Of a stretch of 34,992 nucleotides of DNA, positions 12,894 through 34,992 are shown one piece after another. Position numbers and translations under genes: made by a program. The DNA is from Vicinamibacterales bacterium. Lineage in GTDB: Bacteria; Acidobacteriota; Vicinamibacteria; Vicinamibacterales; UBA2999. The stretch lies in contig DASTDQ010000725.1 of NCBI GenBank assembly GCA_035710305.1, positions 1 through 34,992 of the forward strand. The letters are read 5' to 3'. The notes beneath the pieces are model-generated. The model was not told the origin of the DNA. It saw only the letters and a program-made list of their open reading frames with translations, and ran no database searches. Positions within the stretch are counted from its first letter, which is position 1; the number at the start of each line of letters is the position of its first letter.

Positions 12894-12912
12894 GCCGATT
12901 GATGTCCTCAGC

Positions 12913-14241: not shown

Positions 14242-14280
14242 GACGCCGGGGTGGAGTGACGATCGAACGGACCGGAACGG

Positions 14281-20200: not shown

Positions 20201-23200
20201 GCGATGTTGTCGGGAACGGCATGAGCCGCTGGTGGCTGGGAAGATCTGCTGCCTATTGCCTCGCGATCGCGGTCGAGCAGGATCAGTGAGGAAACGCTGT
20301 CGGCCAGGATACCGATACTGCTGGATGTCGAAATGGCATGCGAGACACCGGAATCGTTGACGATGTAGGAGCGCCGTTCGTCCGGATAATCCGGGTCAAT
20401 CGGCAGATACGCCCCGCCGGCCTTCAGAACGCCCAGTATCGCCACGATCATGTCCGGAGATCTGGCCAGACACAGGGCCACCAGTGTTTCCCGACCGACG
20501 CCCTGTTCGCGAAGGTAATTCGCGAGCCGGTTGCTCTCCTCGTCCAGCTGGCGGTAGGTCAACTGCGTGTGCTGGAAGACGACCGCCACTCGATCGGGAT
20601 ACCGGGCAACCTGCTCCTCGAAGATCGAGTGAATGGTCTTCTCGCGCGGATACTCGGCGGCCGTTCGATTCCAATCGACGAGCTGAGTTCGTTTTTCGGC
20701 CTGGCTGAGCAGATCGACGTCGTTCACCGGAACATCGGAACCGGACGCGAAGCACTCGAGCAGCGCTTCAAAGTGCCCGGCCAGCTGCTCGATCATGAAC
20801 TCGTCGAACAGGTCGGTGTTATAGACCCACGTCCCGACGAACCCCTCGGCCGTACGCTGAACTGACAGGTTGACGTCGTACTTGCCGTGACCGAGATTCG
20901 TATCGACCAGAATGGCTTTCGTCTGTCCGACCGTGATTGCGGCGGGAGGGGCGTCGTCGAATCGAAAGAGCACGTCGAACAGCGCCGTCCGGCTCATGTC
21001 GACCTGGGGATTCAGCTCCTTGACAAGCCAATCGAAGGGCATGTCTTCATGCCGCCGCGCATCGTCGACAGTCCGGATGATTTGCTTCAGGAACGCGCCG
21101 AAGGTCGGGCGGCCACCGAGATTGCTGCGCAGGACCAACAGGTTTGCGAAGGGCCCGACGGCGTTTCGAACGGCAGCATGACGACGACAGGGGACACTGG
21201 TACCGACGACGATCTCCTCGTGACCCGAATAGCGGTGCAGGAGCACATTGAATGCGGCCAGCAGGACCTCGAACGTTCCCGTGTGCTCAGCACGGCCACG
21301 CGCGTCTATCTGGCTGGACAGGCGGCCGCTGAACGCGAAGGTCCGCCGACCGACCGAATAGGTATGAACGGCCGGGCGGCCGACGCGCGTTGGCAGTGTC
21401 AGTGCCTGAAGTGGGCCGGCCAGCTGGCGCTTCCAATAGAACAGCAGTTGCTCGACAACGTCTTCCGGCAAAGTGCGCTGCCAATTCGCATGGTCGATGT
21501 ACCTGACGGTCAGGTCCGCGAACCGGGCAGGCCGCTTTTCGGTCTGAGCGTTATAAGACTCTGCGATCTCCTGTGCGAGCACGCGTAACGACCACGTGTC
21601 GGCCGCACTATGGTGCACGGTCACGACCAATACAGCGGTGGCGTCGGCAAGGCGAAAGAGCGTGGCCCGAATCAGTCGGTCACGATCCAGCGCAATCGGA
21701 ATCTGCGACGCCTCCAACGCGAACTGGACCACCAGCTCGGACGCATCTCGGTCCGGGTCTCCTGCGACGTCGCGAACGTTCAGTTCGAGATCGGTATGCG
21801 GAACGACTTCCTGATACGCGTGACCGTCGCGCGTGACGAATCGCGTGCGCAGGACGTCGTGTCGGCCAGTGACGAGATTGATGGCCCGCTGCAGCAGGTC
21901 CGCATCGACGCCTCCCTGAAAATGCAGGACCAGCGGCAGGTTGTGATAGACCGGATGCGATTCATAGACATTGCCGGTCTCGAACTGGTCGATAAACCAC
22001 ATTCGCTCCTGGTGGTAGGACAGCGAACCTCGGGAGTCGTGGGACGCTGAAAGCGGAATGCTCGCCAGCTCGAGATCCGGATCGAGTCGCAGGGCGTCGA
22101 TCGGCGCCGCGGGGTCGCGAACAATACTCTCGAGGAGCGTGATAAACCGGCGGCACAGGCGCGCGATCGTTGGCGCCTCGAACAGATCGGTGCGGTACAC
22201 GAACGTGCCACGAATGCCGTCTCCAGACTCCCACGCGTACAGATCCAGGTCTGATCTGACGTGCGCGCTCGTGTCATCCAGTGCAGACGCCTTGAGGCCG
22301 GCGAGGTCAATCGCCATCTGCGGGGTGTTCTGAAAGATGAACATCGCCTGAAACAACGGCATCTTTCCGAGATCCCGGATCGGCTCGAGCTCCTCGACCA
22401 GCTTCTCGAAAGGCAGATCCTGGTTGGCATACGCCCCGAGCGCAGCCACCCGCACCTCCGCCAGTAATTCCTGGAACGACATGTCATGGCGCACGTCGGC
22501 CCGCAGCACCAGCGTGTTCACGAACAACCCGATCAACCCTTCAGTTTCGGTCCGGGTACGCCCGGCGATCGGCGTCCCGACGAGGACCTTCTCCTGGTCC
22601 GCGTACCGATGGAGCAACGCCTGGAAGGCGGCGAGCAGCGTCATGAAGAGCGTCGCACCCTCCCGGCGGCTCAGCGCCACCAGCGCCTCCGACAACGCGC
22701 GCGGGAGCCAGACCGGCTCGGTCGCGCCCGCAGTGCTCTGTACCGCCGGCCTCGGTCGATCCGCGGGCAACTCCAGCAACCGTGGAGCACCGCGCAGTCG
22801 ATCCCTCCAGTACGAGAGCTGGGCCTCTAGGACATCACCCTGGAGCCATTGCCGCTGCCAGTGGGCGTAGTCCGCATACTGGATGGGCAGCTCCGGGAAG
22901 GCCGACGGACGTCCCCGCGAGAAGGTCTCGCACACGCTGCTCAGCTCACTGAGCAACACGCGGATCGACCACACGTCGGAGACAATGTGGTGCATCGTCA
23001 GAAGCAGCGCATGCTCCTGGTCCGCCAGGCGGATCAGCGTCGCCCGCATCAGCGGACCCCGCGACAGGTCGAAGGGGCGAGCGGCCTCCTGGCGCGCCAG
23101 ACGTCGGACCTCCTTTTCCCGGCCGGTTTCCGGCAGCTCGCTCACGTCGACCCGACAGAGCGCGCACGGCTCCCCTGCGTCGATGACCTGCTGTGCCCGA

Positions 23201-23394
23201 CCCTCGGACTCGGTGAACGTCGTCCGCAACGCCTCGTGCCGACGAACGACTTCTCGAAGCGCCCCGTTCAGCGCTTCGGCTCGCAGTGGACCCGACAGCC
23301 GTATGGCCGCCGGAATGTTGTACGCAGCGCTCCCCGGCTCCAGTCGATCCAGAAACCACAGGCGTTCCTGAGCGAAGGAAGCTGCAAATCTCAC
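14281..23394 (-). CDS. NRPS-3 (3037 aa): C(LCL)-C'(divergent)-A(Thr code)-T-C(LCL)-A(Gly code)-T(GGDS)-E
   Basis: Track ORF. The GTG start at 23394 overlaps the upstream TGA (GTGA). Domain evidence:
- C1: SFAQERLWFL, MHHIVSDVWS (22995-22966).
- C': LSYHQERMWFIDQFE...YHNLPL, HHSAADTW (21615-21592).
- A1: YTSGSTGRPKG, FDFSVWE / LNQTPSAF / IIFGGE / NMYGITETTVH = DFWNIGMVHK (Thr).
- T1: DFFELGGHS.
- C2: LSFAQERLWFLDQLEP, SAHHIVTDGWS.
- A2: SFDISVLE (16866-16843) / MQGTPATW / LCGGE / NMYGPTETTVW = DILQLGMVWK (Gly).
- T2: FFHVGGDSILA.
- E: TPIQRWFF, AHHLVVDGVSW (HH at 15285-15280), EGHGRE.
- C-terminal tail: SDFPLADLDQATLDRLLQGQEY. Confidence 0.95.
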   Translation of the reverse strand: MRFAASFAQERLWFLDRLEPGSAAYNIPAAIRLSGPLRAEALNGALREVVRRHEALRTTFTESEGRAQQVIDAGEPCALCRVDVSELPETGREKEVRRLARQEAARPFDLSRGPLMRATLIRLADQEHALLLTMHHIVSDVWSIRVLLSELSSVCETFSRGRPSAFPELPIQYADYAHWQRQWLQGDVLEAQLSYWRDRLRGAPRLLELPADRPRPAVQSTAGATEPVWLPRALSEALVALSRREGATLFMTLLAAFQALLHRYADQEKVLVGTPIAGRTRTETEGLIGLFVNTLVLRADVRHDMSFQELLAEVRVAALGAYANQDLPFEKLVEELEPIRDLGKMPLFQAMFIFQNTPQMAIDLAGLKASALDDTSAHVRSDLDLYAWESGDGIRGTFVYRTDLFEAPTIARLCRRFITLLESIVRDPAAPIDALRLDPDLELASIPLSASHDSRGSLSYHQERMWFIDQFETGNVYESHPVYHNLPLVLHFQGGVDADLLQRAINLVTGRHDVLRTRFVTRDGHAYQEVVPHTDLELNVRDVAGDPDRDASELVVQFALEASQIPIALDRDRLIRATLFRLADATAVLVVTVHHSAADTWSLRVLAQEIAESYNAQTEKRPARFADLTVRYIDHANWQRTLPEDVVEQLLFYWKRQLAGPLQALTLPTRVGRPAVHTYSVGRRTFAFSGRLSSQIDARGRAEHTGTFEVLLAAFNVLLHRYSGHEEIVVGTSVPCRRHAAVRNAVGPFANLLVLRSNLGGRPTFGAFLKQIIRTVDDARRHEDMPFDWLVKELNPQVDMSRTALFDVLFRFDDAPPAAITVGQTKAILVDTNLGHGKYDVNLSVQRTAEGFVGTWVYNTDLFDEFMIEQLAGHFEALLECFASGSDVPVNDVDLLSQAEKRTQLVDWNRTAAEYPREKTIHSIFEEQVARYPDRVAVVFQHTQLTYRQLDEESNRLANYLREQGVGRETLVALCLARSPDMIVAILGVLKAGGAYLPIDPDYPDERRSYIVNDSGVSHAISTSSSIGILADSVSSLILLDRDREAIGSRSSQPPAAHAVPDNIAYCIYTSGSTGRPKGVLLEHRQVVRLMVNDHMQFAFTEEDVWSVFHSYCFDFSVWEMYGALLYGGRLVIVSEGVNKDPQQFLGLILSEEVTVLNQTPSAFQQLMHHALSQRRTSVALRYIIFGGEALAPRQLQPWNRAYPDVKLVNMYGITETTVHVTFKGLEAEDLEKDGSNIGVPIPTLQTYLVDSGMRLLPVGVPGELHVGGAGLARNYLNRPELTAERFIPHPFGGPAGARLYKSGDLGLYLPNGEMEYLGRRDHQVKIRGFRIELGEIEGALSRHPALRAVAVVAREDTPGQVRLVAYTVAEAEPPGVTELRDFLKTSLPDYMVPAAFVALDALPLTSNGKVDRRALPAPETQALESAHVAPRSPVEEILADVWASVLGVPQVGVQSDFFELGGHSLLVTRVMSRVAQVFEVDLPLRTLFEHPTVAGLAAQVEAAKQGGAVVRAPSIHRRVDRGSAPLSFAQERLWFLDQLEPSGSAYVVPSALRLTGTLHVASFAAAYREVVRRHESLRTVIVTTGDGRGEQRITDGESIALEFVDLSSLAPIAREEEMRRLALLMARRPFDMASGPLVRATVLRLEDETHVALFSAHHIVTDGWSMGLIVRELTTLYPAFITGHPSPLAEPPIQYADYAVWQRNWLDAGAMDAQVSYWSDRLAGASGLLELPTDRPRPPLQGLAGASEPVSIAKDLSEALQVLSRREGVTPFMTLLAAFQTLLYKYSGQKTVLVGTPIAGRTRAEAEGLIGLFVNTLVMRADFDGALTFRDVLAQVRETALGAYAHQDLPFEKLVDELEVERDLSRTPLFQVMFALQNTPTETLSLPGLSLLPVEIEQATSKFDMTLSLAESPSGIRGTLEYSSDLFDAATIRRMVGHFTQLLEAAVAEPTRPVATLELLSTAERTQLLETWNATEEMYRSDACIPDVFQAQVALTPDAVAVVFEGRQLTYRQLDDRAARLASYLQSVGVGPEVRVGLCLDRSLDLVVGMLGILNAGGAYVALDPSYPEQRLRVILEDADVALVLTQAHLAHRFGADVQVLRIDADWPANAPTADCSASHSLDPRNLAYVMFTSGSTGRPKGVQIAHGSVVNFLETMRAVPGLDRDDTFVSVTTISFDISVLELLLPLTTGARLVVAGPDDVRDGGQLAALVERHQATAMQGTPATWRLVLDNGWSGGASLKALCGGEALSQDLASRLLSGARSVWNMYGPTETTVWSTLDHVEDRDAPTSIGHPIANTKVYVLDRETRLLPIGVPGELHIGGAGVSRGYRKRPDETAARFVPNPFDVAGGSRLYRTGDRVRYRPDGRIEFLGRIDHQVKIRGHRIELGEVETVLGQHQSIRDAVVVAREDAPGHTRLVAYMLASGDQPLSVTELQRHIRASLPEYMIPAAFVTLDAWPFTPNGKIDRRALPAPEQSRPELETAFIAPRDPREKTLAAIWSRVLGVDQLGVHDSFFHVGGDSILAIQIVARANEAGLRLTPRQIFEHQTIAELAAVAGVGEVAAEQGAVTGAVALTPIQRWFFESPPAEPHHFNQALLLEARARLDPACLGQSVASLFLHHDALRHRFELRDGEWHQESMTPDGRSPFSTVDLSSLAPAERSAEMTRQIEALHTSFDLGRGPLFHVRHFACGDEPDRVFLIAHHLVVDGVSWRILLEDLLTAYDQAIRGVSATLPRKTTALQHWARKLYEYVQSGALNEEVAYWQQQVTGEAPRLPVDRTDGPNTIASRAVVSATLTEEDSHALLTEVPEAYGTQINDVLLTALLQAFAPWTGSRALVVDLEGHGRESPFDDLDVSRTVGWFTTIFPVRLELPAKEDPGSALTAIKEQLRQIPQRGIGYGLLRYSEPARIAQLGDAPAEVIFNYLGRFDQTLAANTPFRFATGSSGPAQSPRARPRHLMEVSGIIVDGRLQLSLQYSENVHARATMQGLVDGIADALRGIIAHCLSPDAGGASPSDFPLADLDQATLDRLLQGQEY
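14365..15687 (-). other. Epimerization domain terminating NRPS-3, downstream of a Gly-coded A domain
   Basis: TPIQRWFF, HHFNQ, AHHLVVDGVSW (HH at 15285-15280) and DLEGHGRE are all present. The preceding carrier has the E-type GGDS motif. Confidence 0.85.
16000..19233 (-). repeat. Diverged intra-cluster duplication, copy 2: (A-end)-T-C(LCL)-A(Gly) unit, paralogous to 5100-8305
   Basis: See copy 1. Both A domains give the identical 10-residue code, DILQLGMVWK. Confidence 0.6.
20710..22029 (-). other. C': second, divergent condensation domain in tandem with C1, directly N-terminal to the Thr A domain of NRPS-3
   Basis: The N-terminal signature LSYHQERMWFIDQFETGNVYESHPVYHNLPL differs from the LCL signature LSFAQERLWFLDxLEP used elsewhere in the cluster. 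The active site is HHSAADTW (21615-21592). It is joined to the A domain by a canonical linker (LLSQAEKRTQLVDWNRT). No carrier domain lies between C1 and C'. Confidence 0.8.
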
Positions 23395-25289
23395 GCTCGC
23401 TCTCCTCCCTGCGTGTGCTTCACTTCGCGCGGCAAGCGTTCAATTGCGGGTACATGAATGGTGCGTCCAACCTGCTTCGCGGTGTCGACGTAGGCGGCGA
23501 CCCCCGCCACCGTGGGCGCCTCGAAGAAGTCCTTGAGCGGCATCTCTACCTCGAGCACCTCACGCACGCGCGCAAGGATCTGCGTTGCGATAAGGGAGTG
23601 CCCACCCAGATCGAAAAACCTGTCGAGCACACTCAGCCGCTCCAGGCGCAGCACCTTTGACCAGATGCCGGCAACGATCTCTTCAGTCGCGGATCTCGGT
23701 GCGACGAGCTCAGCGTCGGGCTTCTCCGAGAGCCTCCTGGGCGCCGGAAGCGCCCGCCTGTCGACCTTCCCGCTGAGGGTGTGCGGCAACTCCTCCAGCT
23801 GGATGAAGGCCGCAGGGATCATCCAGATGGGCAGGTATTCGGACAGGTACTGTTTGAGCACGCCGGGCTCGACGTCATCGTTGCGGACGATGTACGCACA
23901 CAGAAACGTCTCGCCCGCCTCTTCTCCGGTGACCACGACAACGTCTCTGATGGACGGGTGGTCGCGCAGGAGGCTCTCGATTTCTCCCAGTTCGACGCGG
24001 AACCCGCGAATCTTGACCTGGTGATCTTTCCTTCCGAGAAACTCGAAGTTCCCATCCTCCAGGACACGTCCCATGTCGCCGGTCTTGTAGACGATGTCCT
24101 CCGGATCGTTACTCCATGGATTCTTGATGAACACCTCGCCGGTCAGATCGGGACGGTTGTAATAGCCCAGCGAGCGGTACGGTGTGCGTATGTAGATCTC
24201 TCCCACCATTCCGGGTGGACACGGATTCCCCTTCGCATCGACGACGATCGCCGACGCTCCTTCGATCGGCTTCCCGATGGGAATCGAGCGCCTGCCCGCG
24301 TCGGACGGCCGTACGAAATAGCAGAACTTCGCCAGCGTGGTCTCGGTGGGGCCAAGCAGGTTGACCAGCTGGATCCGGTCGTCGTACACCTCGGTCCATC
24401 GCCTCACGTCCGAGGGAAGCAGCGCCTCACCGGCCAGCAGCACGTGCTTCAGGTGCGCGAGCCGGCCCGGGTGCAGTTGCTCGTTGAGAAGCAGGCGGAA
24501 CAGCGACGGCACACAGTGCACGAGATTGATCCGCCGATGGTCGATCCAGTCGAGCAGCTTTCGCCCATCGAGCAGCGTTTCGCGCTCGGCAGGGACGCAC
24601 ACCGTACCGCCGGCACACAGTGGCACGAAGACGTCCCTCAGAAACGGATCGAATGACGGCGTCGTCAGCTGACTGACCCGCGTGCCGTGACCAGCGCCGA
24701 CGGTCTTGATCTCCCACCCGATGAAGTGATCGAGTCCCTTGCGACGCCCCGCGATCCCCTTCGGCCGGCCCGTGGAGCCCGACGTGAAGTAGACGTAGCA
24801 CATGTCGTCTGGCGCGACTTCGATCGGCAGCCTCGCGTCGCCCGGGCTCTCGTCCTCGAGGTGGATGACGCCATGAGCTCGTTCGCACGCCTCGTCGAGG
24901 CACACGACCCTCGACCCGGGGTGACGGTCGTTCAGCGCCTCGCGAACATGCGCGCCCGTTCCGCAAGCCAACAGCGACCACGCCGGCGCAAGCTCCGACA
25001 CGATTCCCTCGAGCCGTTTCGGCGGCATCGTCGAGTCCATCGGGGCGAACGCAAGGCCGGCCTTCAGCGACGCGAGCATCCCGACGATCACCTGCACACG
25101 GTCCTCGACGAGGATGGCGACGACCGACCCTTTCGTGGCACCGGCGGAGAGGAAAAGCCTGGCGAGCCGGTCCGCCTTCCGGCGAAGCTCGCCGTAGGTC
25201 AGCCTCCGTTCGCCGCACTCGATCGCCGTCGTCTCACTGAAAGACTCGGCGGCGCGGTCGAACCAATCAACGATGCCTTCGCGTGTCAT
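23391..25289 (-). CDS. Stand-alone NRPS adenylation-thiolation (A-T) didomain protein, unassigned substrate
   Basis: 632-aa ORF, ATG at 25289, 14 nt after the asnB-like stop. It begins directly with A-domain N-terminal sequence (IVDWFDRAAESFSETTAIE...LTYGEL). Motifs: FTSGSTGRPKG, SFDPFLRDVF, NLLGPTETT, YKTGD, KIRGFRVELGEIE, SGKVDRRAL. The carrier motif is RFFDLGGHSLIA. It ends in a T-C-linker-like tail (IERLPREVKHTQGGERA). Confidence 0.93.
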   Translation of the reverse strand: MTREGIVDWFDRAAESFSETTAIECGERRLTYGELRRKADRLARLFLSAGATKGSVVAILVEDRVQVIVGMLASLKAGLAFAPMDSTMPPKRLEGIVSELAPAWSLLACGTGAHVREALNDRHPGSRVVCLDEACERAHGVIHLEDESPGDARLPIEVAPDDMCYVYFTSGSTGRPKGIAGRRKGLDHFIGWEIKTVGAGHGTRVSQLTTPSFDPFLRDVFVPLCAGGTVCVPAERETLLDGRKLLDWIDHRRINLVHCVPSLFRLLLNEQLHPGRLAHLKHVLLAGEALLPSDVRRWTEVYDDRIQLVNLLGPTETTLAKFCYFVRPSDAGRRSIPIGKPIEGASAIVVDAKGNPCPPGMVGEIYIRTPYRSLGYYNRPDLTGEVFIKNPWSNDPEDIVYKTGDMGRVLEDGNFEFLGRKDHQVKIRGFRVELGEIESLLRDHPSIRDVVVVTGEEAGETFLCAYIVRNDDVEPGVLKQYLSEYLPIWMIPAAFIQLEELPHTLSGKVDRRALPAPRRLSEKPDAELVAPRSATEEIVAGIWSKVLRLERLSVLDRFFDLGGHSLIATQILARVREVLEVEMPLKDFFEAPTVAGVAAYVDTAKQVGRTIHVPAIERLPREVKHTQGGERA

Positions 25290-25303
25290 GTAATGCTGTT
25301 ACC

Positions 25304-27175
25304 TCAGTTGCGGCTGGGCAGATCGAACGTATCGAGCAGAATGCCGAACGTGAGCACGATCAGCAGCCAGTCGCTCTCCAGGTGGGGATTGATCTTGGAC
25401 CCGGGCCGTGAATACTGCGTCTTCAGCCTCTCGATCGTGTCCGGGTTGAAGTACCCCTGCCTCTTGATCCGGCCGGGCGACAGCATGTCGTTCACCCACT
25501 CGATGTTCTGCTGGAGCAGATACGGGCTGCCCGGCGCACGGAACCCGAACTTTTCCCTGTCGATGATCTCTCGCGGGACCTGACCTTCGGCGACTTTCTT
25601 GATGATGTACTTCTCGGTCAGGCCGTTGACCTTCATGCCTGGCGGGATCTCCCGCGCGAACTGCACCAGGTTGATGTCCAGAAAGGGATATCTCGCCTCG
25701 ACCGCGTGTGCGAGCGCCATCCTGTCCCCGTGATCGGACAGCAGGTGATCGGCAAGCCTCAGCTTGTAATCGAGGTACGAACGCTGGTGCAACGGGTGGC
25801 GGCCCCGGAGTTGTTCCTTGTCCACGAGCTCGAAGCTCGTGCAGTCGAACTGCTCGAAGCACTCGTTGACACCGGCGGAGTACAGGGCCTGCTTCACGTC
25901 CCTCAGCGCGTACTGATGCTGTTCGTAGAAGAGGTCGCGATCGCCCCACAGCCTCTCGCGCAACTCGTCCTCGAGGACGGAGTCGAGGTCGTGCTTCCTC
26001 TCCGCGCGCAGCCCTGCCTGGTCGAAGCGGTAGCCGATGTAGCCGCCGAACGTCTCGTCGCTACCTTCTCCCGTGAGCACGACGGTGATGCCGTTCTTCT
26101 TGGTCGCACGCGACAGCGCCATCGAGCAGGTGTTGTACGTCTCCCTGACGGGGCATTCGCAGTGGTAGATCATTCCCGGCAGGCGCTGCTGGATCTCGGA
26201 CCAGTCGAACATCAGCTCGTGGTGAATCGACTGGTTGGACTCCACCATCATCTGTTGAAAGCGCTTCTCGGACAGTTCCCGGTTTTCGTCGCTGAACGCA
26301 ATCGAGAACGAATGACGCGTCACCTCCGGTGAGGCCCGTTTGATCAGCGCTGCGATCAGCGACGAGTCGAGTCCGCCGCTCAGATAGAACCCCACCGGCA
26401 CGTCGGCCTGCAGGCGGTATCGGACCGACTGCAGGAGCAGTTCATCGACGCGGCTCGCATAGTAACGTTCCGGCCTCTCGTCGATGCCGTCGCTCATCCT
26501 GGGATAGTCCAGATCCCAGTAGCGTCTCACCGCGACGCGTGAATCCTCGAGGGTGACATAGTGGCCGCTCTTCAGGCTCTCGATACCCTTGAACATCGTC
26601 CGCGGGCTGACCAGGCCAGGGAACGAGAGGACCTGGTCGAGGCCCGTCAGGTCCACTTCACGGCGGACCATCGGATGCTCCAGGATGGCCTTGATCTCCG
26701 AGCCGAACACGAAGACGCCATCCGCGAGCGTGTAGAACAGAGGAGCAACGCCGAAATGGTCCCTCGCGAGGAAGAGCGTCCGCTTTCGCCGATCGTACAG
26801 GACGAAGGCGAACTGGCCGTTCAGTTCCTGCAACAACTCGACGCCGTGTTCCTCGTACAGGTGGAGGATCACCTCCACGTCGCTGTTGGTGCGGAAGACG
26901 TGGCGATCGCGAAGGCGATCCCGCAACTCGGCGTAATTGAATATCTCGCCGTTGCACAACAGCACGAGCGACCGATCCTCGCTGTAGATCGGCTGATCGC
27001 CGGTCTGCAGGTCGATGATGCTGAGCCTTCGAAATCCGAGCCCTACGTTGTCCTCGACGAAGTATCCACACGAGTCGGGGCCGCGATGCACGAGGCGGTC
27101 GGTCATCCTCGTGAGCACCGCACGGTCGACACCCTCGTGCCGATCCAGGTTGACGAAACCGGTGAGCCCGCACAT
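25304..27175 (-). CDS. asnB: Asparagine synthetase B-family, glutamine-hydrolysing amidotransferase (AsnB-like)
   Basis: 623-aa ORF. ATG at 27175 lies 2 nt after the NRPS-2 TAG. It has the N-terminal nucleophile MCGLTG (Cys2), then RGPD, NGEIFNY, SDVEVIL, and the PP-loop SGGLDSS (26380-26360). Both the glutaminase and synthetase halves look intact. Confidence 0.93.
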   Translation of the reverse strand: MCGLTGFVNLDRHEGVDRAVLTRMTDRLVHRGPDSCGYFVEDNVGLGFRRLSIIDLQTGDQPIYSEDRSLVLLCNGEIFNYAELRDRLRDRHVFRTNSDVEVILHLYEEHGVELLQELNGQFAFVLYDRRKRTLFLARDHFGVAPLFYTLADGVFVFGSEIKAILEHPMVRREVDLTGLDQVLSFPGLVSPRTMFKGIESLKSGHYVTLEDSRVAVRRYWDLDYPRMSDGIDERPERYYASRVDELLLQSVRYRLQADVPVGFYLSGGLDSSLIAALIKRASPEVTRHSFSIAFSDENRELSEKRFQQMMVESNQSIHHELMFDWSEIQQRLPGMIYHCECPVRETYNTCSMALSRATKKNGITVVLTGEGSDETFGGYIGYRFDQAGLRAERKHDLDSVLEDELRERLWGDRDLFYEQHQYALRDVKQALYSAGVNECFEQFDCTSFELVDKEQLRGRHPLHQRSYLDYKLRLADHLLSDHGDRMALAHAVEARYPFLDINLVQFAREIPPGMKVNGLTEKYIIKKVAEGQVPREIIDREKFGFRAPGSPYLLQQNIEWVNDMLSPGRIKRQGYFNPDTIERLKTQYSRPGSKINPHLESDWLLIVLTFGILLDTFDLPSRN

Positions 27176-27177
27176 GG

Positions 27178-30100
27178 CTACCCCTGCACCGGCGCGTTGA
27201 AGTCGTTGAGCAGTTGCTGGGTCTCCGACTCGGCGGCCATCGACAGAGCGGACACGCTCAGGTCGGGACGGGCGGCCACGTCGGCGAGAATGCGTTCGAA
27301 GCGGCGCAGCATCTGATCGACGGTGTCGGCGTCGAACAGGTCGACTCCGTAGTGCACCGTGACGTCAAGGCCTCCGTCTCTATGGGAGATGCTCATCCAT
27401 AGATCGAACTCCGTGGCGACGTTGTCGATCTTGAAGCTGCTGACCTCGAGTCCGTGGAGCGACGCCCGCTCCGGGGCCGGTTCATCCAGCTGAAACCAGA
27501 CCTGGAACAGCGCGCGATTCGATGTCCGCAGTGGACGCAGCTGTTCCACCAGCTTCTGATATGGAAGCGACTCGTGACTGTAGGCGTCGAGGCAAACCCT
27601 CCGCACACGCGCCAGGACCTCGCGAAAGGAGGGCGGGCCGGAGAAGTCCGTTCGCAGGACGAGGGTATTCACGAAGAAACCAATGAGCGGATCGGTCTCG
27701 GATCGCGTCCGGCCCGAGACGGGCGTGCCGACGACGATGTCGTCCTGACCGCTGTAGCGGTACAGCAGCGTCTGAAACGCCGCAAGAAGGAGCATGAAGG
27801 AGGTCACACCTTCGCTCCGGCCCAGCTCGGCCAGGTCCCGATACAGGTCGCCGGACACTCTGATTGACTGGGTGGCGCCGCGGCGGGTCGGCGCCGCCGG
27901 TCGAGGATGCCGCGTCGGGAGAAGCAGGGGCGCCGGCTCCCCCTGGAGCTGTTTCGTCCAGTAAGACAGGTGCGCCTCCAGGACTTCTCCCTGGAGCCAG
28001 TGTCGTTGCCAACTGGCGAAGTCGGCGTATTGAATGCCCAGCTCGCGCAGCGGCGAGAGACCACCCTGGCTGAACGCGGCGTAGAGGTGAGTGAATTCGG
28101 CGATCATCCGCTCGATCGACCAGCCGTCCGACACGATGTGATGCATCGTGAACACGACGATGTGTTCCCGCGGAGTCAACCGGAGGACTTTCACGCGGAG
28201 TAATGGCGCTCGAGCCAGGTCGAAGGGGCGTCCCATTTCGTCCGACAGGACGCGCCGTGCCTCGGGTTCGCGCTCGGCGAGCGTCAGGCTTGACAGATCC
28301 GCGATCGGAGCCGGGAATCGACCTGGTTCCAGAATGCACTGACGCGGTTGGCCGCCCTCCGCGAGGAACGCGGTGCGGAGCGTTTCGTGCCGCCTGACGA
28401 TCTCGGCGATCGTCTGCTCGAATGCGGCGAGGTCCAACGCGCCATTGAAACGGACGATCCTGACCATGCTGTAGAACGGATTGTCTGGTTCGACCTGGTG
28501 CATGAACCAGAGACGTTCCTGTGCGAACGAGAGAGGCAGAACCCCTTGCCGGCTGGTACGCTCGATAGCCCGCGTCTCTGCACCCAGTCCAGTGCTGGCC
28601 GCAGTTTCGAGACGCGCCGCCAGGCTGGCCACCGTGGGAGACTCGAACAGATCGCGGTACGACAGGTTCACCTGGAATGCCGCGTTCAGCCGGGTCAGGA
28701 TCTGGAGCGCCAGGAGAGAATGGCCCCCCAGGTCGAAGAAATCGTCTTCCACGCCGACCTCGTCGAGGCGCAGCACCTGCGACCAGATGGTTGCCAGAAT
28801 CTCTTCGCGCGGAGTACGTGGCGCAATCTTTGTCTTCGCCGATCGCCTCAGCGAATCAGGCGCAGGCAGTGCCTCTCGATCGACCTTTCCGTTGCGCGTC
28901 AACGGCAGGGACTCCAGCCTGAGGAACGTGGCCGGAATCATGTAGTCTGGCAGGCGCTCGTTCAGCCACGCTCGCAGCTCGCCGACGTCGACATCCGCTT
29001 CGGCACCCAGATACGCGACGAGGCGCACATCGCCTGGCGTGTCCTCGCGGGCAAGGACGGCCACGTCCCGCACGCCCCGGTACGTGCCGAGCACGGCCTC
29101 GATCTCGCCGAGCTCGATGCGAAAGCCTCGAATCTTGACCTGATGGTCGACCCGTCCCAGGAACTCGAGGTTTCCGTCGGCGCGGTACCGCGCCAGGTCG
29201 GCGGTCCGGTACAGTCGCGCACCGGGGCTGTCGCCAAACGCATCGGGAACAAAGGCCGCGGCTGTCGAGTCCGGACGCCCAAGGTAGCCTCGCGCAAGCT
29301 GTGAGCCTCCGAGGTACAGCTCCGCGGCGGCGCCCGTTGGCATCAGCCTCAACCGGCTGTTCAGCAGGTGGATTTGCGTACCGACCGTCGGTCGACCGAT
29401 GGGCACCGCCCCCGAGCCGTCTGCAGCGCCGTCTCCGCCGGGCACTTCGTAGATGCAGCAGCCCACGGTGGCTTCAGTGGGACCGTACTCGTTGACAATC
29501 CTGGTGTTGGGCGCGTGTGTCCTCCAGGGGCGGAGAGTCTCGCCATGCAACGCCTCGCCGCCAATGACGATCACGTTGGCCAATCCGGGAACCCGGTCGT
29601 GAGACAACTGCTGATTCAAGAGTGCCAGGTGGGATGGCGTGATCTTCAGCAGGCTCCAGCCGCCCGCCCGACTGAGTGCCTCACCAAGCTCGTCCACGGG
29701 TAAGTCGTCCGGCAGCACCGACACGCACCGGCCGGTGAGTAATTGAGGGAACACACTCGTAATCGTCAGGTCGAAGCCGAGGGGGGAATGTAGCGGGGCA
29801 CCACGCCCCTCTGACACCCGGTATTCCCGGGTGCTCCAGCTCAAGTACTGCGCGAGAGCCCGATGGGAGACCATCACCCCCTTGGGCGACCCGGTCGATC
29901 CAGATGTGTAGATGACGTACGCAAGGCTCTCGGGCATTCCCGGCTCTGACAGGTTCTCGCGACTCTCGCGGGCAATCGCCTCCCAGTCCGCGTCCAGACA
30001 AACCGTCGAACCCGTCGGCGGTGAAAACCGGTCGCGCAGCAGCTGCTGTGTCACTAACAGGGATACCCCCGCGTCCTCGATCATGAACATCAACCGCTGT

Positions 30101-31821
30101 CGCGGGTAACCGGGATCGAGTGGGACGTACCCTCCGCCGGCCTTGAGAATGCCAAGTATCCCTACGACCATCTCGGGCGAGCGCTCCACGCACAGGCCAA
30201 CGAGGGTGTCCGTGCCGACGCCGGCCCTCCTCAAGTAGCGAGCCAGTTGGTTCGCGCGGGCATTCAGTTCCCGGTAGTCGAGCGTCGTTGCACTCGACGC
30301 CACGGCCACTGCGTCTGGAGTGCGGTCGACTTGTGCCTCGAACTGTTCCTGCACGCAGCCGTTCGGGACAACAGCGGCAACCTCGGGCGGGCGGTTCCAC
30401 TCGAGCAGCAGCCTGTGACGCTCGGATTCGCCCACGATTTCCAGATCGCCGATCGGCGCGCTCGGCTGCTTCGCGATGCTGGTCAGGAGCGTCTGAAGCT
30501 GCGACGCCAGCCGCTCGATGTCGCCCTCGGCAAAGTAGCGATGGTCGTAGTGCAGCTCGATCGAGAGCGCTCCCTGCCGCCGCGCGGAGGACAACTTGAT
30601 CCGGAACTGGTCGGTACACGCGCTCAGGCGGTCGATGGTGAACGTCGTATCGTCACCGACCGACAGGACTGGCGGGATCTCTTCGAAGTCGAAACAGAGA
30701 GGGTAATGCGCCTGCTCGATGTCGGCATCGGCCGCAGCGAGCATGTCCCTGCAATCGAAATACTCCTGCCACTCCGCGATCTCTTCGACATCGTGTCTGA
30801 CGCGTCGAAGAACCTCGCTGAACGGGTCGTCGTCGACGACGGAACAGCTGAGCGGGAGGTATCGTGCGAACAGGCCGATGGTACCCTCGAGCTGCTCGTA
30901 GTTCCGCCCGTCGAAGGCTGTGCCGATGGGGATTTCCGCCTGCCCGGTCAATCTCCCCAGCAACACTCGCCATGCTGCGAGCAGCAGTGCCGAGGTCGGC
31001 GCTTCCAGTCGGCTGCTGAGCCGCTCGATGTCTGCGCTCAACTGCGAATCGATCCGAACTGCGATCACCTTCGGGTGAAAGCCTCCTTCCTCTATCGACT
31101 CCTTCGGAAAGGGCAACGCGATCTCGCCGGTCGGCCGAGGCCTGTGATTCTTCCAGTACGTCCTGCCGGCTTCAGTGTCAGCGGTCTCGAGGAGTTGATT
31201 CTGCCATTCGGCCAGGTCCGCGTACTGCAGGGGTTCGTCGGACAGTACATCCTGGCGCACTCGGGCAGAGTAGTGCCGGGCCAGTTCACGTACGAGGTTG
31301 CCAAGACCCCTCCAGTCCGCACACAGGCCCGGGAGAGTCAGGAACAACGTGCGGCGACCAGGCGCCAGGCGGATCACGGCAATCTCGAGCAGGGGTCCAT
31401 GCACGAGATCCAACCGCCTGTTCAGCTGGTCCGTGACGATCTGCTCTATTTCGTGCGTCTGACTGGCGGCCCGGTCGCTCAAGTCGTACTGGCGAATCAC
31501 CGGCGACTGGCCTGCGTCAGGAACCTGAACGGGAACGGTGACGCCAGACACGCAGCGGAACGTGGTGCGAAGGATCTCGTGTCTCTCGACGACGTGTCTC
31601 ACCGTGTCGGCGAAGATCGCCTCATCGAACGCTCCGTCTACCAGGACGGTGCACGCCGAGCGACGATTCTGCCAGTCGCCGATCTGCTGAAGGCGCCACA
31701 ACCGATCCTGTTGCGGCGAGAGCCGGAAACCGGCGACATCTTCCTGCATGCCTGCGGACTCGTTTCGAGCGCTCATTCGCTCACCGGCCAGGTGTGTCGA
31801 TTCGTTCGCGAGGGGAAGCAA
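27178..31821 (-). CDS. NRPS-2 (about 1530-1547 aa): C*(no catalytic His)-A(Asn code)-T-C(LCL), ending inside a C-A linker
   Basis: The track ORF starts at TTG 31821; an ATG at 31776 (MSARNES...) is an alternative start. Domain evidence:
- C*: FRLSPQQDRLW and LTLPGLCADWRG (31335-31306) where HHxxxDG is expected.
- Canonical C-A linker: ERHRLLLEWNRP.
- A: YTSGSTGSPKG, FDLTIT / LKITPSH / VIGGE / NEYGPTEATVGC = DLTKVGEVGK (Asn-like).
- T: DFFDLGGHSLLA.
- C: LSFAQERLWFM, MHHIVSDGWS.
- The last residues, ...ESETQQLLNDFNAPVQG*, resemble the xQLLxxWNxT C-A linker. Confidence 0.93.
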   Translation of the reverse strand: MLPLANESTHLAGERMSARNESAGMQEDVAGFRLSPQQDRLWRLQQIGDWQNRRSACTVLVDGAFDEAIFADTVRHVVERHEILRTTFRCVSGVTVPVQVPDAGQSPVIRQYDLSDRAASQTHEIEQIVTDQLNRRLDLVHGPLLEIAVIRLAPGRRTLFLTLPGLCADWRGLGNLVRELARHYSARVRQDVLSDEPLQYADLAEWQNQLLETADTEAGRTYWKNHRPRPTGEIALPFPKESIEEGGFHPKVIAVRIDSQLSADIERLSSRLEAPTSALLLAAWRVLLGRLTGQAEIPIGTAFDGRNYEQLEGTIGLFARYLPLSCSVVDDDPFSEVLRRVRHDVEEIAEWQEYFDCRDMLAAADADIEQAHYPLCFDFEEIPPVLSVGDDTTFTIDRLSACTDQFRIKLSSARRQGALSIELHYDHRYFAEGDIERLASQLQTLLTSIAKQPSAPIGDLEIVGESERHRLLLEWNRPPEVAAVVPNGCVQEQFEAQVDRTPDAVAVASSATTLDYRELNARANQLARYLRRAGVGTDTLVGLCVERSPEMVVGILGILKAGGGYVPLDPGYPRQRLMFMIEDAGVSLLVTQQLLRDRFSPPTGSTVCLDADWEAIARESRENLSEPGMPESLAYVIYTSGSTGSPKGVMVSHRALAQYLSWSTREYRVSEGRGAPLHSPLGFDLTITSVFPQLLTGRCVSVLPDDLPVDELGEALSRAGGWSLLKITPSHLALLNQQLSHDRVPGLANVIVIGGEALHGETLRPWRTHAPNTRIVNEYGPTEATVGCCIYEVPGGDGAADGSGAVPIGRPTVGTQIHLLNSRLRLMPTGAAAELYLGGSQLARGYLGRPDSTAAAFVPDAFGDSPGARLYRTADLARYRADGNLEFLGRVDHQVKIRGFRIELGEIEAVLGTYRGVRDVAVLAREDTPGDVRLVAYLGAEADVDVGELRAWLNERLPDYMIPATFLRLESLPLTRNGKVDREALPAPDSLRRSAKTKIAPRTPREEILATIWSQVLRLDEVGVEDDFFDLGGHSLLALQILTRLNAAFQVNLSYRDLFESPTVASLAARLETAASTGLGAETRAIERTSRQGVLPLSFAQERLWFMHQVEPDNPFYSMVRIVRFNGALDLAAFEQTIAEIVRRHETLRTAFLAEGGQPRQCILEPGRFPAPIADLSSLTLAEREPEARRVLSDEMGRPFDLARAPLLRVKVLRLTPREHIVVFTMHHIVSDGWSIERMIAEFTHLYAAFSQGGLSPLRELGIQYADFASWQRHWLQGEVLEAHLSYWTKQLQGEPAPLLLPTRHPRPAAPTRRGATQSIRVSGDLYRDLAELGRSEGVTSFMLLLAAFQTLLYRYSGQDDIVVGTPVSGRTRSETDPLIGFFVNTLVLRTDFSGPPSFREVLARVRRVCLDAYSHESLPYQKLVEQLRPLRTSNRALFQVWFQLDEPAPERASLHGLEVSSFKIDNVATEFDLWMSISHRDGGLDVTVHYGVDLFDADTVDQMLRRFERILADVAARPDLSVSALSMAAESETQQLLNDFNAPVQG
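30427..31731 (-). other. C*: condensation-like domain lacking both active-site histidines (PGLCADW instead of HHxxxDG), fused by a normal C-A linker to the Asn A domain
   Basis: Reverse complement of 31335-31306 reads L-P-G-L-C-A-D-W-R-G. Aligned to MHHIVSDGWS of the other C domains in this window, this gives H->P and H->G. The domain boundaries are approximate. Confidence 0.8.
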
Positions 31822-31836
31822 GAACGCATCGCGCGA

Positions 31837-34800
31837 TCAACCACGGTGGCGTGCTGCTCTGCCGCGTGCGATCGCAGAGAGCTTCTCTCGGCTGGCGGAC
31901 TTCGCCAGCGATTTCTGTTTGCCGCGATGACTCGCGTCGGTGCTGACGAGAATGTCGCCCACCGTCCTCGATTCAGCCTCACCGGAGCTCACCAGCGTCG
32001 TGATGGCCGCTTCCAGATAGCTCAAGATGTCGGAAATTTCTCCGTCGTCGAAGCGACGTGCGTCGTAGTTGACGCGGCACAAGACGGCCGGTCGCAAAGT
32101 CACGTCCAGCGTCAGCGCGTAGTGCGACGCGTCGTCGGCGTGCAGGTCGCGGATCACGAGAGCCGATTCTCCCTTCAGCGTGCCAACCGGGTGGTTCTTG
32201 AACACGAGGAGGCTTTCGAACAGGGGCTTGCCACGCGGCACGTCACTCCAGCCGTGCACGTCTACCAGTGAGGAGTATTCGTAGTCTCGTTGCCTGACCT
32301 GACCTGCCTGTATCGCCGTGAGCCATGGCACCACGCCGTCATCACGGTTCAGCCGTACGCGCAGCGGCAGTGTGTTGATGAAGAGCCCTACGATGGAATC
32401 CACCCCCTCGAGTTGGGGAGGACGCCCGGACACGGACACGCCGAACACGACGTCGTCGCTGCCGGAGATGCACGCCAGGACCAGCCCCCATGCTCCCTGG
32501 AGAACGGTGTTCAGCGTCACGTGGTGCCGCCGGGCGTAGTCGCGCAGCGCGTCGGTGGTCGACGACGGCAGCGGCAACGGCCGGCGTCGATAGGAACGCC
32601 CGGTCGCGGTCGATTCAGCCGCGGTCAGCGACCCGCCCACGGGAGTCGGAACGGTGAAGCCCGCCATCACGCCGCGCCAGTAGGACTCGGCTGCCGTCTG
32701 ACTCTGCCCGGCGTGCCAGGCGATGTAGTCGCGGAACGGGCGCGCCGGCGGCAGCTCGATCGCCTCACTCCGGCGGAATCCCTCGTACAGGCTCATGACC
32801 TCCTGGATGATCAAGGGGCCGGACCACCCATCCAGCAGCATGTGGCTGTAGCTCCAGACGAACTGGAACGTTCGCTCCCCGAGCCTCGCGAGCGTGACGC
32901 GCATGAGAGGGGCCTCGGTCAGGGCGAGGCCCCGATCGCGATCGGCTGCCAGAAGAGATGTCAGTTGCCTCTGCTGGTCAGTCTGCGCAAGCGATCGCCA
33001 ATCCTCCACGACCCAAGGCAGCGCGACCTGTCCGTGGACGATCTGGAGTGGCCTGTCGAGATTCTCGTAGCGGAAGGTCGTTCGCAATGCGGGATGCCGA
33101 TCGACGACCTGTTGCCAGGCCCGCTGAAATGCCTCGAGGTCCAGATCCCCCTCGAGCGTGCAACTGAGCTGCTCGAAGTAGCCTCCCGAATCACGATCGT
33201 AGAGCGAGTGGAACAGCAGACCCTGCTGAAGCGGCGACAGCGGATAGATGTCCTCGATTCGCGAGTCATCTCCCAGGAGCGTATCGAGCGTGCGCTGGTC
33301 CAGGTCGGCCAGCGGAAAGTCGGCGGGCGTCAGCTTGCCTGCCGCGGCCGAGGGACGCTGACGAATCAGCACACGCAGCGATTCGAGGAGGCCGGTCACG
33401 AGGGCCTGCGCGGTCTCGCGCCGATGTTTGCCGCCGAAGGTGAGTGAGACGGTCAGCTGATCCGCCGCAACGCCCGCCGCCAGCTCCATCAGGTGCGGGC
33501 GCGCGTTTGCGGGGGCGTGCGCCGGGCCGCGAGACTCGGCCGCCTGCGTGAACAACGATGAGCCGGGTTCGGCTTGATCGGCCGTCCCGAGATAAAGAAA
33601 CACGATCTCGGCGTGCGGCAGGCGTTCCAGCCGCGGGCCCGACTCCGGGCTGAGATAGCGGAGCAGGCCGAAATTCATTCCGTTATTCGGAACGGCTCGG
33701 AGCTGCTCTTTCACCGTCCTGATCGCGTCACCGGGTCGAGCGCCCGGCCTGATTTGCAGCGCCACGGGATAGATCGTCGTGAACCACCCGGCCGTACGAG
33801 ACACGTCGATCCCCTCGATGAACTCCTCGCGGCCGTGGCCCTCGAGCTCCAGGAGCAATGCCGACTGGCCACTCCACTTACAGAAGGCCTGCGTGGTGGC
33901 TGTCAGAAGCAGTTCATCGACGCGCGCGTTCCACGCTTTCCGTGCGTCGTCGAGCAGCAGCTGCGTCTCCGACGCGGTCAGGGACGACGAGACAGTGGCC
34001 TTCGACCCGTAGGTGTTCTCGCCATCCGGGACGTCTCGTGGCAACGGTTCCACGCCCGCCTCTCCCACCGACAGCCAGTACGGGAGCTCGCGAGCCACGG
34101 TCTCCGACCGGGCATGTTCGTTGAGGCGCGCCGACCAGTCCTTGAACGACACCGTCTTTGGCGGCAGCGTGACGTTTTCGCCCCGACCGAGCGCTTGATA
34201 GATCGCCTCGAAGTCCTCCAGCAGGAACCGCCAGGACAGGTTGTCCACGGCCAGGTGGTGAATGCACACGAGCCAGCGCCCGCGCCGCCCGGCACCCAGG
34301 TCGAAATGTGTGGCCTGCATGAGAGGGCCGCGCGACAGATCCAGCGCGCCCTGCGACTGCGCCGCGGCCGCCTCGATGGCGGCCGCCACCTCGCCATCCG
34401 GCACGGTACTCAGATCGACCTGACGCACGACGGCTTCGGCGCCCGGCTTGGCGACGATCTGCCGCCAACCCGACTCGTCCCGCGTGAAGCGCGCGCGAAG
34501 GGCGTCGTGATGCGCCTCGAGGCGCGTGAGCACGTCGCGTACGCGGGCCACGTCGAGCGGCTGGACTTCTTCCAGAAGAACGGATTGATTGAAGTGATGC
34601 GGCGCCGCGAACTGACGCTCGAAGAACCAGTGCTGGATCGGCGTCAACAGCACGGGGCCCGTGACCACGCCCTGCTCGGCCTCGATCCTCGAGGCGCCGG
34701 AGGCGACCGATGCCAGCTCCGCAATGGTCTGGTGCTGAAGGATGTGCTTGATCGAGAGCGCCAGGCCAGCCTGGTTGGCCTTGGCGACGACCTGAATGCC

Positions 34801-34992
34801 GCCCACCGAATCGCCACCAAGCTCGTAGTAGTTGTCGTGGATGCCGATCGGCTCGATGCCCAGCACGTCCTGCCAGATCCGGGTCAACGACCGTTCCGAA
34901 TCGCTGCGCGGCGCCTCGTATTCGGTCTGCAGTTCCGGCCGCGGGTGTGCCGAGGGCCTGGACCCTCGGGCGTCGGGCGCTGCCGCCTGCAC
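31837..34992 (-). CDS. NRPS-1, 5'-truncated by the window edge: ...T(GGDS)-E-C(DCL) followed by a basic tail
   Basis: The track ORF is open to the right edge. Domain evidence:
- T: YYELGGDSVGG.
- E: TPIQHWFF, CIHHLAVDNLSW, EGHGRE.
- E-C linker: ADFPLADLDQRTLDTLLGDDSRIEDIYPLSPLQQGLLFH.
- C: WSYSHMLLDGWS (first His replaced by Ser, second His kept).
- The protein ends with the Lys/Arg/Ser-rich tail ...SHRGKQKSLAKSASREKLSAIARGRAARHRG*. Confidence 0.93.
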   Translation of the reverse strand: MQAAAPDARGSRPSAHPRPELQTEYEAPRSDSERSLTRIWQDVLGIEPIGIHDNYYELGGDSVGGIQVVAKANQAGLALSIKHILQHQTIAELASVASGASRIEAEQGVVTGPVLLTPIQHWFFERQFAAPHHFNQSVLLEEVQPLDVARVRDVLTRLEAHHDALRARFTRDESGWRQIVAKPGAEAVVRQVDLSTVPDGEVAAAIEAAAAQSQGALDLSRGPLMQATHFDLGAGRRGRWLVCIHHLAVDNLSWRFLLEDFEAIYQALGRGENVTLPPKTVSFKDWSARLNEHARSETVARELPYWLSVGEAGVEPLPRDVPDGENTYGSKATVSSSLTASETQLLLDDARKAWNARVDELLLTATTQAFCKWSGQSALLLELEGHGREEFIEGIDVSRTAGWFTTIYPVALQIRPGARPGDAIRTVKEQLRAVPNNGMNFGLLRYLSPESGPRLERLPHAEIVFLYLGTADQAEPGSSLFTQAAESRGPAHAPANARPHLMELAAGVAADQLTVSLTFGGKHRRETAQALVTGLLESLRVLIRQRPSAAAGKLTPADFPLADLDQRTLDTLLGDDSRIEDIYPLSPLQQGLLFHSLYDRDSGGYFEQLSCTLEGDLDLEAFQRAWQQVVDRHPALRTTFRYENLDRPLQIVHGQVALPWVVEDWRSLAQTDQQRQLTSLLAADRDRGLALTEAPLMRVTLARLGERTFQFVWSYSHMLLDGWSGPLIIQEVMSLYEGFRRSEAIELPPARPFRDYIAWHAGQSQTAAESYWRGVMAGFTVPTPVGGSLTAAESTATGRSYRRRPLPLPSSTTDALRDYARRHHVTLNTVLQGAWGLVLACISGSDDVVFGVSVSGRPPQLEGVDSIVGLFINTLPLRVRLNRDDGVVPWLTAIQAGQVRQRDYEYSSLVDVHGWSDVPRGKPLFESLLVFKNHPVGTLKGESALVIRDLHADDASHYALTLDVTLRPAVLCRVNYDARRFDDGEISDILSYLEAAITTLVSSGEAESRTVGDILVSTDASHRGKQKSLAKSASREKLSAIARGRAARHRG

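Follow-up and report, generated by a model that had tools for sequence, protein, structure and literature searches.

An AsnB-family amidotransferase gene conserved beside detached D-x-[R/K]-H adenylation domains suggests isoasparagine formation in nonribosomal peptide clusters

An amidotransferase gene within a C-A linker

We analysed a 34,992-nt stretch of DNA from a Vicinamibacterales bacterium (contig DASTDQ010000725.1 of assembly GCA_035710305.1; this whole stretch is called the window below) in which a gene for an AsnB-family amidotransferase stands in the middle of a nonribosomal peptide synthetase (NRPS) gene cluster. Five collinear genes encode a partial NRPS-1, NRPS-2, the AsnB homologue, a small protein made of an adenylation (A) and a thiolation (T) domain, and NRPS-3 (Table 1), and they all lie on the minus strand. 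An earlier note on this DNA had read the arrangement as a single condensation (C)-A-T module split in its C-A linker, with AsnB lodged between the halves. It had left two functions side by side as indistinguishable from the sequence: supply of Asn to Asn-coded modules nearby, or amidation of the residue carried by the A-T protein, to which the split would give AsnB access.

The structural part of that description holds in every detail examined. NRPS-2 ends ...ESETQQLLNDFNAPVQG (...LLNDFNAPVQG), inside the C-A linker and 5 residues past the (W/F)N motif when set against the contiguous junctions of the same window (...RTQLLETWNATEEMYRSDACIPDVFQAQV and ...RTQLVDWNRTAAEYPREKTIHSIFEEQV), while the A-T protein begins MTREGIVDWFDRAAE..., at the equivalent of IPDVF in the fused linkers. 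The two pieces together give a linker of 10 residues, compared with 11-12 in the fused modules. In place of a canonical fused C-A-T module we find a stop codon in the linker and AsnB between the halves. The spacers of 2 nt and 14 nt were confirmed by reading the sequence, as were the two Asn-coded A domains of the window (DLTKVGEVGK and DATKVGEVGK). The end of the A-T gene shares 4 nt with the start of NRPS-3, to which the A-T protein is predicted to pass the chain, and a further NRPS beyond NRPS-3 runs off the start of the window. No promoter-like sites were found, and there were no terminator-like sites at either AsnB junction.

Table 1 Features of the window discussed in the text
Feature	Coordinates	Strand	Basis and remarks
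NRPS-1, partial	31837..34992	-	C-terminus is a C domain
NRPS-2	27178..31821	-	1547 aa, Pfam order C-A-T-C, A domain Asn-coded
C-terminal condensation domain of NRPS-2	27178..28548	-	Pfam Condensation aa 1092-1538; linker comparison
Spacer NRPS-2/AsnB, 2 nt	27176..27177	-	TAG-CC-ATG, sequence read
AsnB homologue, 623 aa	25304..27175	-	PF00733, PF13537, TIGR01536
Spacer AsnB/A-T, 14 nt, with GAGG Shine-Dalgarno-like motif	25290..25303	-	Sequence read
A-T protein, 632 aa	23391..25289	-	AMP-binding, AMP-binding_C and PP-binding only (Pfam)
A domain of the A-T protein	23730..25289	-	AMP-binding aa 10-377, AMP-binding_C aa 436-508
T domain and C-terminal tail of the A-T protein	23391..23729	-	PP-binding aa 539-601; LGGHSL motif
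NRPS-3, C-C-A(Thr)-T-C-A(Gly)-T-E-like	14281..23394	-	Pfam, domain map, specificity codes

The AsnB homologue is predicted to be an active amidotransferase

The homologue opens with MCGLTG, so placing the Cys2 nucleophile, carries the PP-loop SGGLDSS and matches PF00733 (2.1e-78), PF13537 (4e-43) and TIGR01536 (465 bits, cutoff 267), in agreement with the full-length, intact enzyme described earlier. Residues were mapped in E. coli numbering on an E. coli AsnB sequence that agrees with the alignment to 1CT9. The glutaminase residues C1, R49, N74, E76 and D98 are kept in the window protein and in 93/93 relatives, as are PP-loop residues S234, G235, G236, D238 and S239 (with L at position 237 in 86 sequences and S240 in 92); on the synthetase side D351, E352 and K449 are invariant (93/93) and E348 nearly so (91/93). 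Because the residues of both active sites are kept across the clade, we predict that AsnB is an active glutamine-dependent amidotransferase.

The enzyme shares its two-domain architecture, Cys1 glutaminase, PP-loop and the E348/D351/K449 equivalents with E. coli AsnB and human ASNS. It departs from both in being about 70 residues longer through an insertion in the synthetase domain, in its NRPS rather than housekeeping context and in a conserved Arg of the synthetase site (E. coli R387, human R403; PMC6748925), which is His in 93/93 members of the clade and also in the HMMER alignments of the window protein to 6GQ3 and 1CT9. Among the Asp-binding positions mapped against the E. coli and human enzymes, this R387-to-His change alone is robust; the D384 position falls inside an insertion of ~35-70 residues where MAFFT and HMMER alignments differ. 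The profile for E. coli-type asparagine synthase B (NF006949) is missed at 337 bits against a cutoff of 499.

Other branches of the family were rejected. For lasso-peptide cyclases, macrolactam cyclases and beta-lactam synthetases the scores fall below the profile cutoffs (NF033535, 247 bits against 525; NF033561, 47 against 300), 1JGT matches at only 7e-12 and the glutaminase site is intact; the XrtA/PEP-CTERM amidotransferase profile TIGR03108 (410 versus 816.9 bits) and the NAGGN amidotransferase profile TIGR03104 (352 versus 570.1) are likewise missed. The nearest solved structures are 7YLZ (best, 2.6e-59) and 1CT9. The former is the hydroxyamidotransferase TsnB9, which has the AsnB fold and acts on the carboxylate of a pathway intermediate rather than on free Asp. 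DdaH, OxyD and the amidotransferases of glutarimide polyketide synthases are further AsnB-fold enzymes that amidate the carboxylate of a pathway intermediate. To our knowledge no tailoring amidotransferase of the family has been reported between the C and A halves of a module or tied to an isoAsp-type A domain.

The C / AsnB / A-T layout recurs in at least six phyla

The same layout, as C / AsnB / A-T(-C), recurs on independent contigs with AsnB identities of 94%, 89% and 70%, and a genome scan with AsnB returned 80 further loci at 50-66% identity. In all we compared 89 AsnB-anchored loci, collected through searches with AsnB or the A-T protein, with open reading frames (ORFs) called stop-to-stop and C, A, T and AsnB domains mapped by phmmer. 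The cassette occurs in at least six phyla: Acidobacteriota, Cyanobacteriota, Bacteroidota, Bacillota, Actinomycetota (Streptomyces sp. CB02058) and Desulfobacterota. A C domain ends less than 300 nt upstream of AsnB in 44/89 loci, an A domain starts less than 300 nt downstream of it in 44/89, and both hold in 31/89, the strict form of the arrangement. Given this recurrence, on independent contigs and in 31 of the 89 loci, the arrangement is neither chance nor an assembly artefact.

In cyanobacterial and many acidobacterial loci an Asp/Glu racemase gene lies between AsnB and the A domain, and related cassettes hold other partner genes, namely a methylaspartate mutase, a PhyH dioxygenase and a B12-radical SAM enzyme. 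The AsnB relatives that lack NRPS neighbours, nine in all, stand in mixed contexts (transposases, OCD/mu-crystallin, TauD) that gave no lead.

The A domain beside AsnB shares its code with a domain for side-chain-linked Asp

Specificity codes were extracted by the Stachelhaus scheme through alignment to GrsA, whose own code DAWTIAAICK was recovered as a control. The A-T protein of the window reads DPRHLALLAK, which is identical to the code of Zmn16-A1 of the zeamine synthetase, a domain that NRPSpredictor had mis-called as specific for 2-aminoadipate/2-aminoadipic acid (PMC3547906). Nuclear magnetic resonance of prezeamine placed a 'γ-aspartate', that is a side-chain-linked Asp, at the Zmn16-A1 position (PMC5811116). 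The fabclavine homologue FclI, with the code DPRHVSLLAK, is listed as Asp. Codes of the form D-x-R-H are also found in the microcystin modules for iso-linked D-MeAsp and D-Glu.

The A domain of the window thus combines a D-x-R/K-H code with a known product residue for that code, as expected of a Zmn16-A1-type isoAsp A domain, and most likely loads Asp attached by its β-carboxyl; this prediction follows from the Zmn16-A1/FclI code match and from the Asp-type partner genes. If the Asp is β-linked its α-carboxylate is left free, as an obvious target for amidation. Like Zmn16-A1 and FclI-A1, with codes identical and identical in 8 of 10 positions respectively, the window A domain lies at the N-terminus of its protein. 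Those two belong to starter modules in which the α-carboxyl stays free, whereas the module of the window, with a C-ending protein upstream, elongates a chain and is paired with AsnB. A VinN/FlvN-like β-amino-acid adenylating enzyme was considered and rejected, since a PDB search returned an ordinary NRPS A-T with LgrA as the nearest entry; the putative β-aminoacyl-ACP synthetases 7DQ5 and 6M01 score far below LgrA against the A-T protein.

AsnB co-varies with the D-x-[R/K]-H A domain

Across the loci the A domain that follows AsnB nearly always reads D-[PAGV]-[RK]-H-[LVF]-[AS]-x-[LM]-x-K. This D-x-[R/K]-H class, below DxRH, makes up 78/198 A domains in the 89 loci and is present in 58 of the 74 loci with a complete A domain, against 16 for the Asn code. 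AsnB is the nearest upstream domain for 53/78 of the class, 38 of them within 300 nt. The association is also seen from the side of the A domain, AsnB lying directly upstream in 4/4 sampled database homologues of the A-T protein and in 4 to 5 of the 8 closest genomic relatives of the A domain. A genome scan with the single A-domain sequence gave these 8 loci, and a protein-database search was used in its place.

Pairwise identities point the same way. Those of AsnB correlate with those of the adjacent A domain at a Spearman rho of 0.75-0.83 and of the downstream C domain at 0.77, compared with 0.59 for the upstream C domain and 0.25 for the nearest other A domain, although these figures are crude and the pairs are not phylogenetically independent. 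The cassette therefore exists as a unit in which AsnB and the DxRH A domain co-vary, and, contrary to the earlier expectation, comparative genomics does discriminate between the two proposed functions.

The C/A break is a property of the A-domain class

Of the 78 DxRH A domains 70 start their own ORF, whereas just 8 of the 120 remaining A domains in the same loci do so (Fisher p about 5e-38). Fusion to a C domain is seen for only 2 of the class and for 100/120 of the others. For 16 DxRH A domains the immediate upstream neighbour is a separate protein that ends in a C domain, with no AsnB between the two (as in the A-T-C series of loci L015, L024, L026 and L031). A search of 5.8 billion proteins gave the same picture: each of the top 120 homologues of the A-T protein is an A-T, A-T-TE (thioesterase) or A-T-C protein, the A domain starts at residue 1 (±8) in 120/120 and D.[RK]H is present in 119/120. 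Conversely, L009 and L010 have their DxRH A domain fused to C and yet carry the AsnB gene about 6.5-7.5 kb upstream, so AsnB can occur without the split.

The break between C and A is thus a property of this class of A domain and is not caused by AsnB, and the idea that the module was split to give the enzyme access finds no support. Because the split is class-wide, with or without AsnB, the AsnB gene sits at a pre-existing gene boundary. The simplest account is a mobile AsnB + A-T(-C) unit that recombined at the C-A linker. The detached A-T protein is compatible with tailoring in trans.

Variants of the cassette in other loci

In six loci (L004, L006, L007, L009, L010 and L075) AsnB adjoins genes for an Asp/Glu racemase and for a methylaspartate mutase fused to a B12-binding part, which suggests 3-methyl-(iso)asparagine variants. 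In L015, L024, L026 and L031 (about 12000-20400) three successive A-T-C proteins all carry DGKH.. codes, with AsnB before the first only, and a run of three iso-linked Asp-type residues is predicted for these loci. In Calothrix sp. CCY 0018 (L099, 14090-17428) the cassette adjoins a LanM-like gene (DUF4135 + LANC_like), and a metagenomic locus (L101, 12406-18617) has three Lant_dehydr_N (LanB-like) genes after its AsnB-racemase-A-T-TE cassette.

Two possible links to known chemistry were set aside. Chitinopeptins of Chitinophaga eiseniae were rejected as the product of L088, their structure being without Asn or isoAsn and no AsnB being mentioned, and the terminal 'AMT' domain known from cyanobacterial hectoramide and vatiamide differs in kind, being a fused domain for off-loading.

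Comparison with known systems

The closest functional parallel lies in the peptidoglycan of Lactococcus lactis, where RacD makes D-Asp, AslA joins it by its β-carboxyl and AsnH, of the AsnB family, amidates the α-carboxyl to give D-isoAsn; AslA accepts neither D-Asn nor D-isoAsn, and amidation follows ligation (PMC4155827). The cassette likewise brings together an Asp racemase, a predicted ATP-dependent activator of the β-carboxyl and an AsnB-family amidotransferase. AslA, however, is an ATP-grasp ligase whose acceptor is a peptidoglycan precursor, whereas the activator of the cassette is an NRPS A-T didomain; the window itself is without a racemase, and AsnH is likened to AsnB by function and not by sequence.

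A small A-T protein encoded beside its tailoring enzyme is a familiar arrangement in which a free-standing A-T protein is served in trans, as in SyrB1/SyrB2, CmaA/CmaB and NovH/NovI. The tailoring enzymes of the SyrB2, CmaB and NovI type are oxygenases or halogenases, unlike that of the cassette, and we know of no description of on-carrier amidation for free-standing A-T systems.

A model for isoasparagine formation and its rivals

We propose that the A-T protein loads Asp by its β-carboxyl and that AsnB amidates the free α-carboxylate to give an isoasparagine residue, a reading favoured by the sequence comparisons and the Lactococcus analogy to which we give a probability of about 0.55. The amidation of the neighbouring residue foreseen in the earlier note would thereby be refined to a β-linked Asp. 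The conserved cassette joins AsnB to an A-T(-C/-TE) protein with a D-x-[R/K]-H A domain and, in some cases, to an aspartate racemase or another enzyme that modifies Asp. The A domain would adenylate the β-carboxyl of L-Asp and tether the residue to the T domain, the free α-carboxylate being held by Arg239 and His278, so that Asp would enter the peptide as isoaspartate. AsnB, using glutamine-derived ammonia and ATP, would then convert the α-carboxylate to a carboxamide. By analogy with Lactococcus AsnH this would take place after activation, either while the aminoacyl or peptidyl group is still bound to the T domain as a thioester or once the peptide has been released. The C/A break would have been inherited with the cassette, as an A-T-C exchange unit with a tailoring gene ahead of it that recombined at the C-A linker. 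We suggest more tentatively, as the less probable side of the question, that AsnB may work on the thioester itself, β-aspartyl or peptidyl-β-aspartyl, while this is bound to the carrier, the detached A-T(-C) protein serving as a dedicated platform that would give amidation its time window ahead of condensation or following it.

Several observations weigh against this proposal. Isoasparagine is a prediction, no AsnB-containing cassette having a known product, and the substrate assignment draws on a 10-residue code and on two relatives (zeamine and fabclavine) that have no AsnB, and the ligand role of Arg239/His278 is putative. None of the 89 loci contains an AsnB-NRPS fusion protein, and there is therefore no Rosetta-stone support for on-line action. 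AsnB passes TIGR01536, nominally an asparagine synthase equivalog, with which ordinary Asp-to-Asn activity is compatible. The loci were gathered by similarity to AsnB or the A-T protein, and the non-independence noted above bears on the correlations. Finally, 13/16 of the loci with an Asn code, the window included, also hold the DxRH class, so that in this window the context alone is compatible with Asn supply.

That last point bears on the simplest function offered earlier, an extra asparagine synthetase that raises the L-Asn pool for the two Asn-coded modules. The presence of those modules and the TIGR01536 match are what one would expect of it. Across the related loci, however, AsnB tracks the DxRH A domains and the Asn code occurs in only 16/74; the gene adjoins a DxRH A domain rather than an Asn module and co-varies with the former. 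Several copies may occur in one genome, each inside an NRPS cluster (two each in the single metagenome-assembled genomes SMAG_U2212, with L009 and L013, and SMAG_U400, with L031 and L042), and the synthetase-site Arg is His throughout the clade. We regard general Asn supply as the least probable of the explanations weighed here. Scarcely more credible is a carrier-level transamidation, an NRPS analogue of Asp-tRNA(Asn) transamidation, in which the A domain would load Asp by its α-carboxyl, Arg239 would hold the β-carboxylate and AsnB would amidate the side chain on the T domain to give ordinary Asn. Being basic, the residue at position 239 would suit either carboxylate as a ligand, and a free-standing A-T protein beside a tailoring gene is the classical on-carrier layout; the only characterised A domains with this code nevertheless yield side-chain-linked Asp, and with ordinary Asn modules in the same clusters such an indirect route would be redundant.

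A dedicated precursor supply deserves more weight, though we still think it unlikely. Here AsnB would make a free amide (L-isoasparagine, Asn or a D- or methyl-derivative) that the adjacent D-x-[R/K]-H A domain loads, with no tailoring involved. The close adjacency and co-inheritance of the two genes fit a precursor enzyme and its cognate A domain equally well, the partner racemase and glutamate mutase act on free amino acids, and TIGR01536 is again in its favour. Three points speak against it. In zeamine an identical 10-residue code brings in Asp that is not amidated, and the cluster paper names no amidotransferase or asparagine synthetase (PMC3547906); the Arg/Lys kept at position 239 suggests a carboxylate rather than a carboxamide ligand; and the ligase of the peptidoglycan analogue refuses both D-Asn and D-isoAsn, with amidation following ligation.

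Other features of the window

The N-terminal C-like domain of NRPS-2 has a degenerate His motif (..TLPGLCADWRGL.. versus HHxxxDG) and follows the terminal C domain of NRPS-1; the border between the two proteins is a C/C junction with one probably inactive C domain. The first ~900 aa of NRPS-3 hold two tandem C domains (HHIVSDVWS and HHSAADTWS) ahead of the Thr A domain, and a tandem C after the DxRH module is also present in L001-L003, L032, L033, L082, L087, L088, L090, L091 and L095. Between NRPS-3 and the NRPS that runs off the window start lie an esterase-like ORF (11127..13019, minus strand) and a GDSL-lipase-like ORF (12913..14241, minus strand) that overlap by ~100 nt and may encode hydrolases for off-loading or tailoring; the window showed no TE domain. 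Long plus-strand ORFs in 1..14000 (for example 5277..7793 and 9279..11219) overlap the minus-strand NRPS and are most likely high-GC shadow ORFs rather than genes.

Implications

Tailoring enzymes of the AsnB family have been described before and so, separately, have isoAsp-type A domains. The conserved pairing of AsnB with an isoAsp-type A domain, the predicted isoasparagine residue and the systematic detachment of A from C appear to be undescribed so far. Our literature search (specificity codes, isoasparagine, AsnB-like enzymes, racemase with asparagine synthase) found no characterised compound or paper on the function of the cassette, and a 2015 cyanobacterial survey noted an 'asparagine synthase and racemase' in an orphan NRPS cluster with an effect that was not predictable (PMC4558948). 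The present model offers a testable function for this gene pair, which has been left unexplained in orphan clusters.

For genome mining it would provide a simple rule: where an A domain reads D-x-[R/K]-H, an Asp-type residue linked by its side chain is to be expected, and where AsnB adjoins that domain, amidation of the α-carboxyl of the residue as well. The position in the C-A linker is the site used for engineered exchange units, and an A-domain class so rarely joined to C represents a natural, working C/A split that may be useful for NRPS engineering. Should amidation take place on the carrier, it would constitute a new class of in-trans NRPS tailoring and the first glutamine-dependent amidation on an NRPS carrier protein, and many phyla would have in the cassette a general and transplantable way of making (D-)isoasparagine and methyl-isoasparagine residues.

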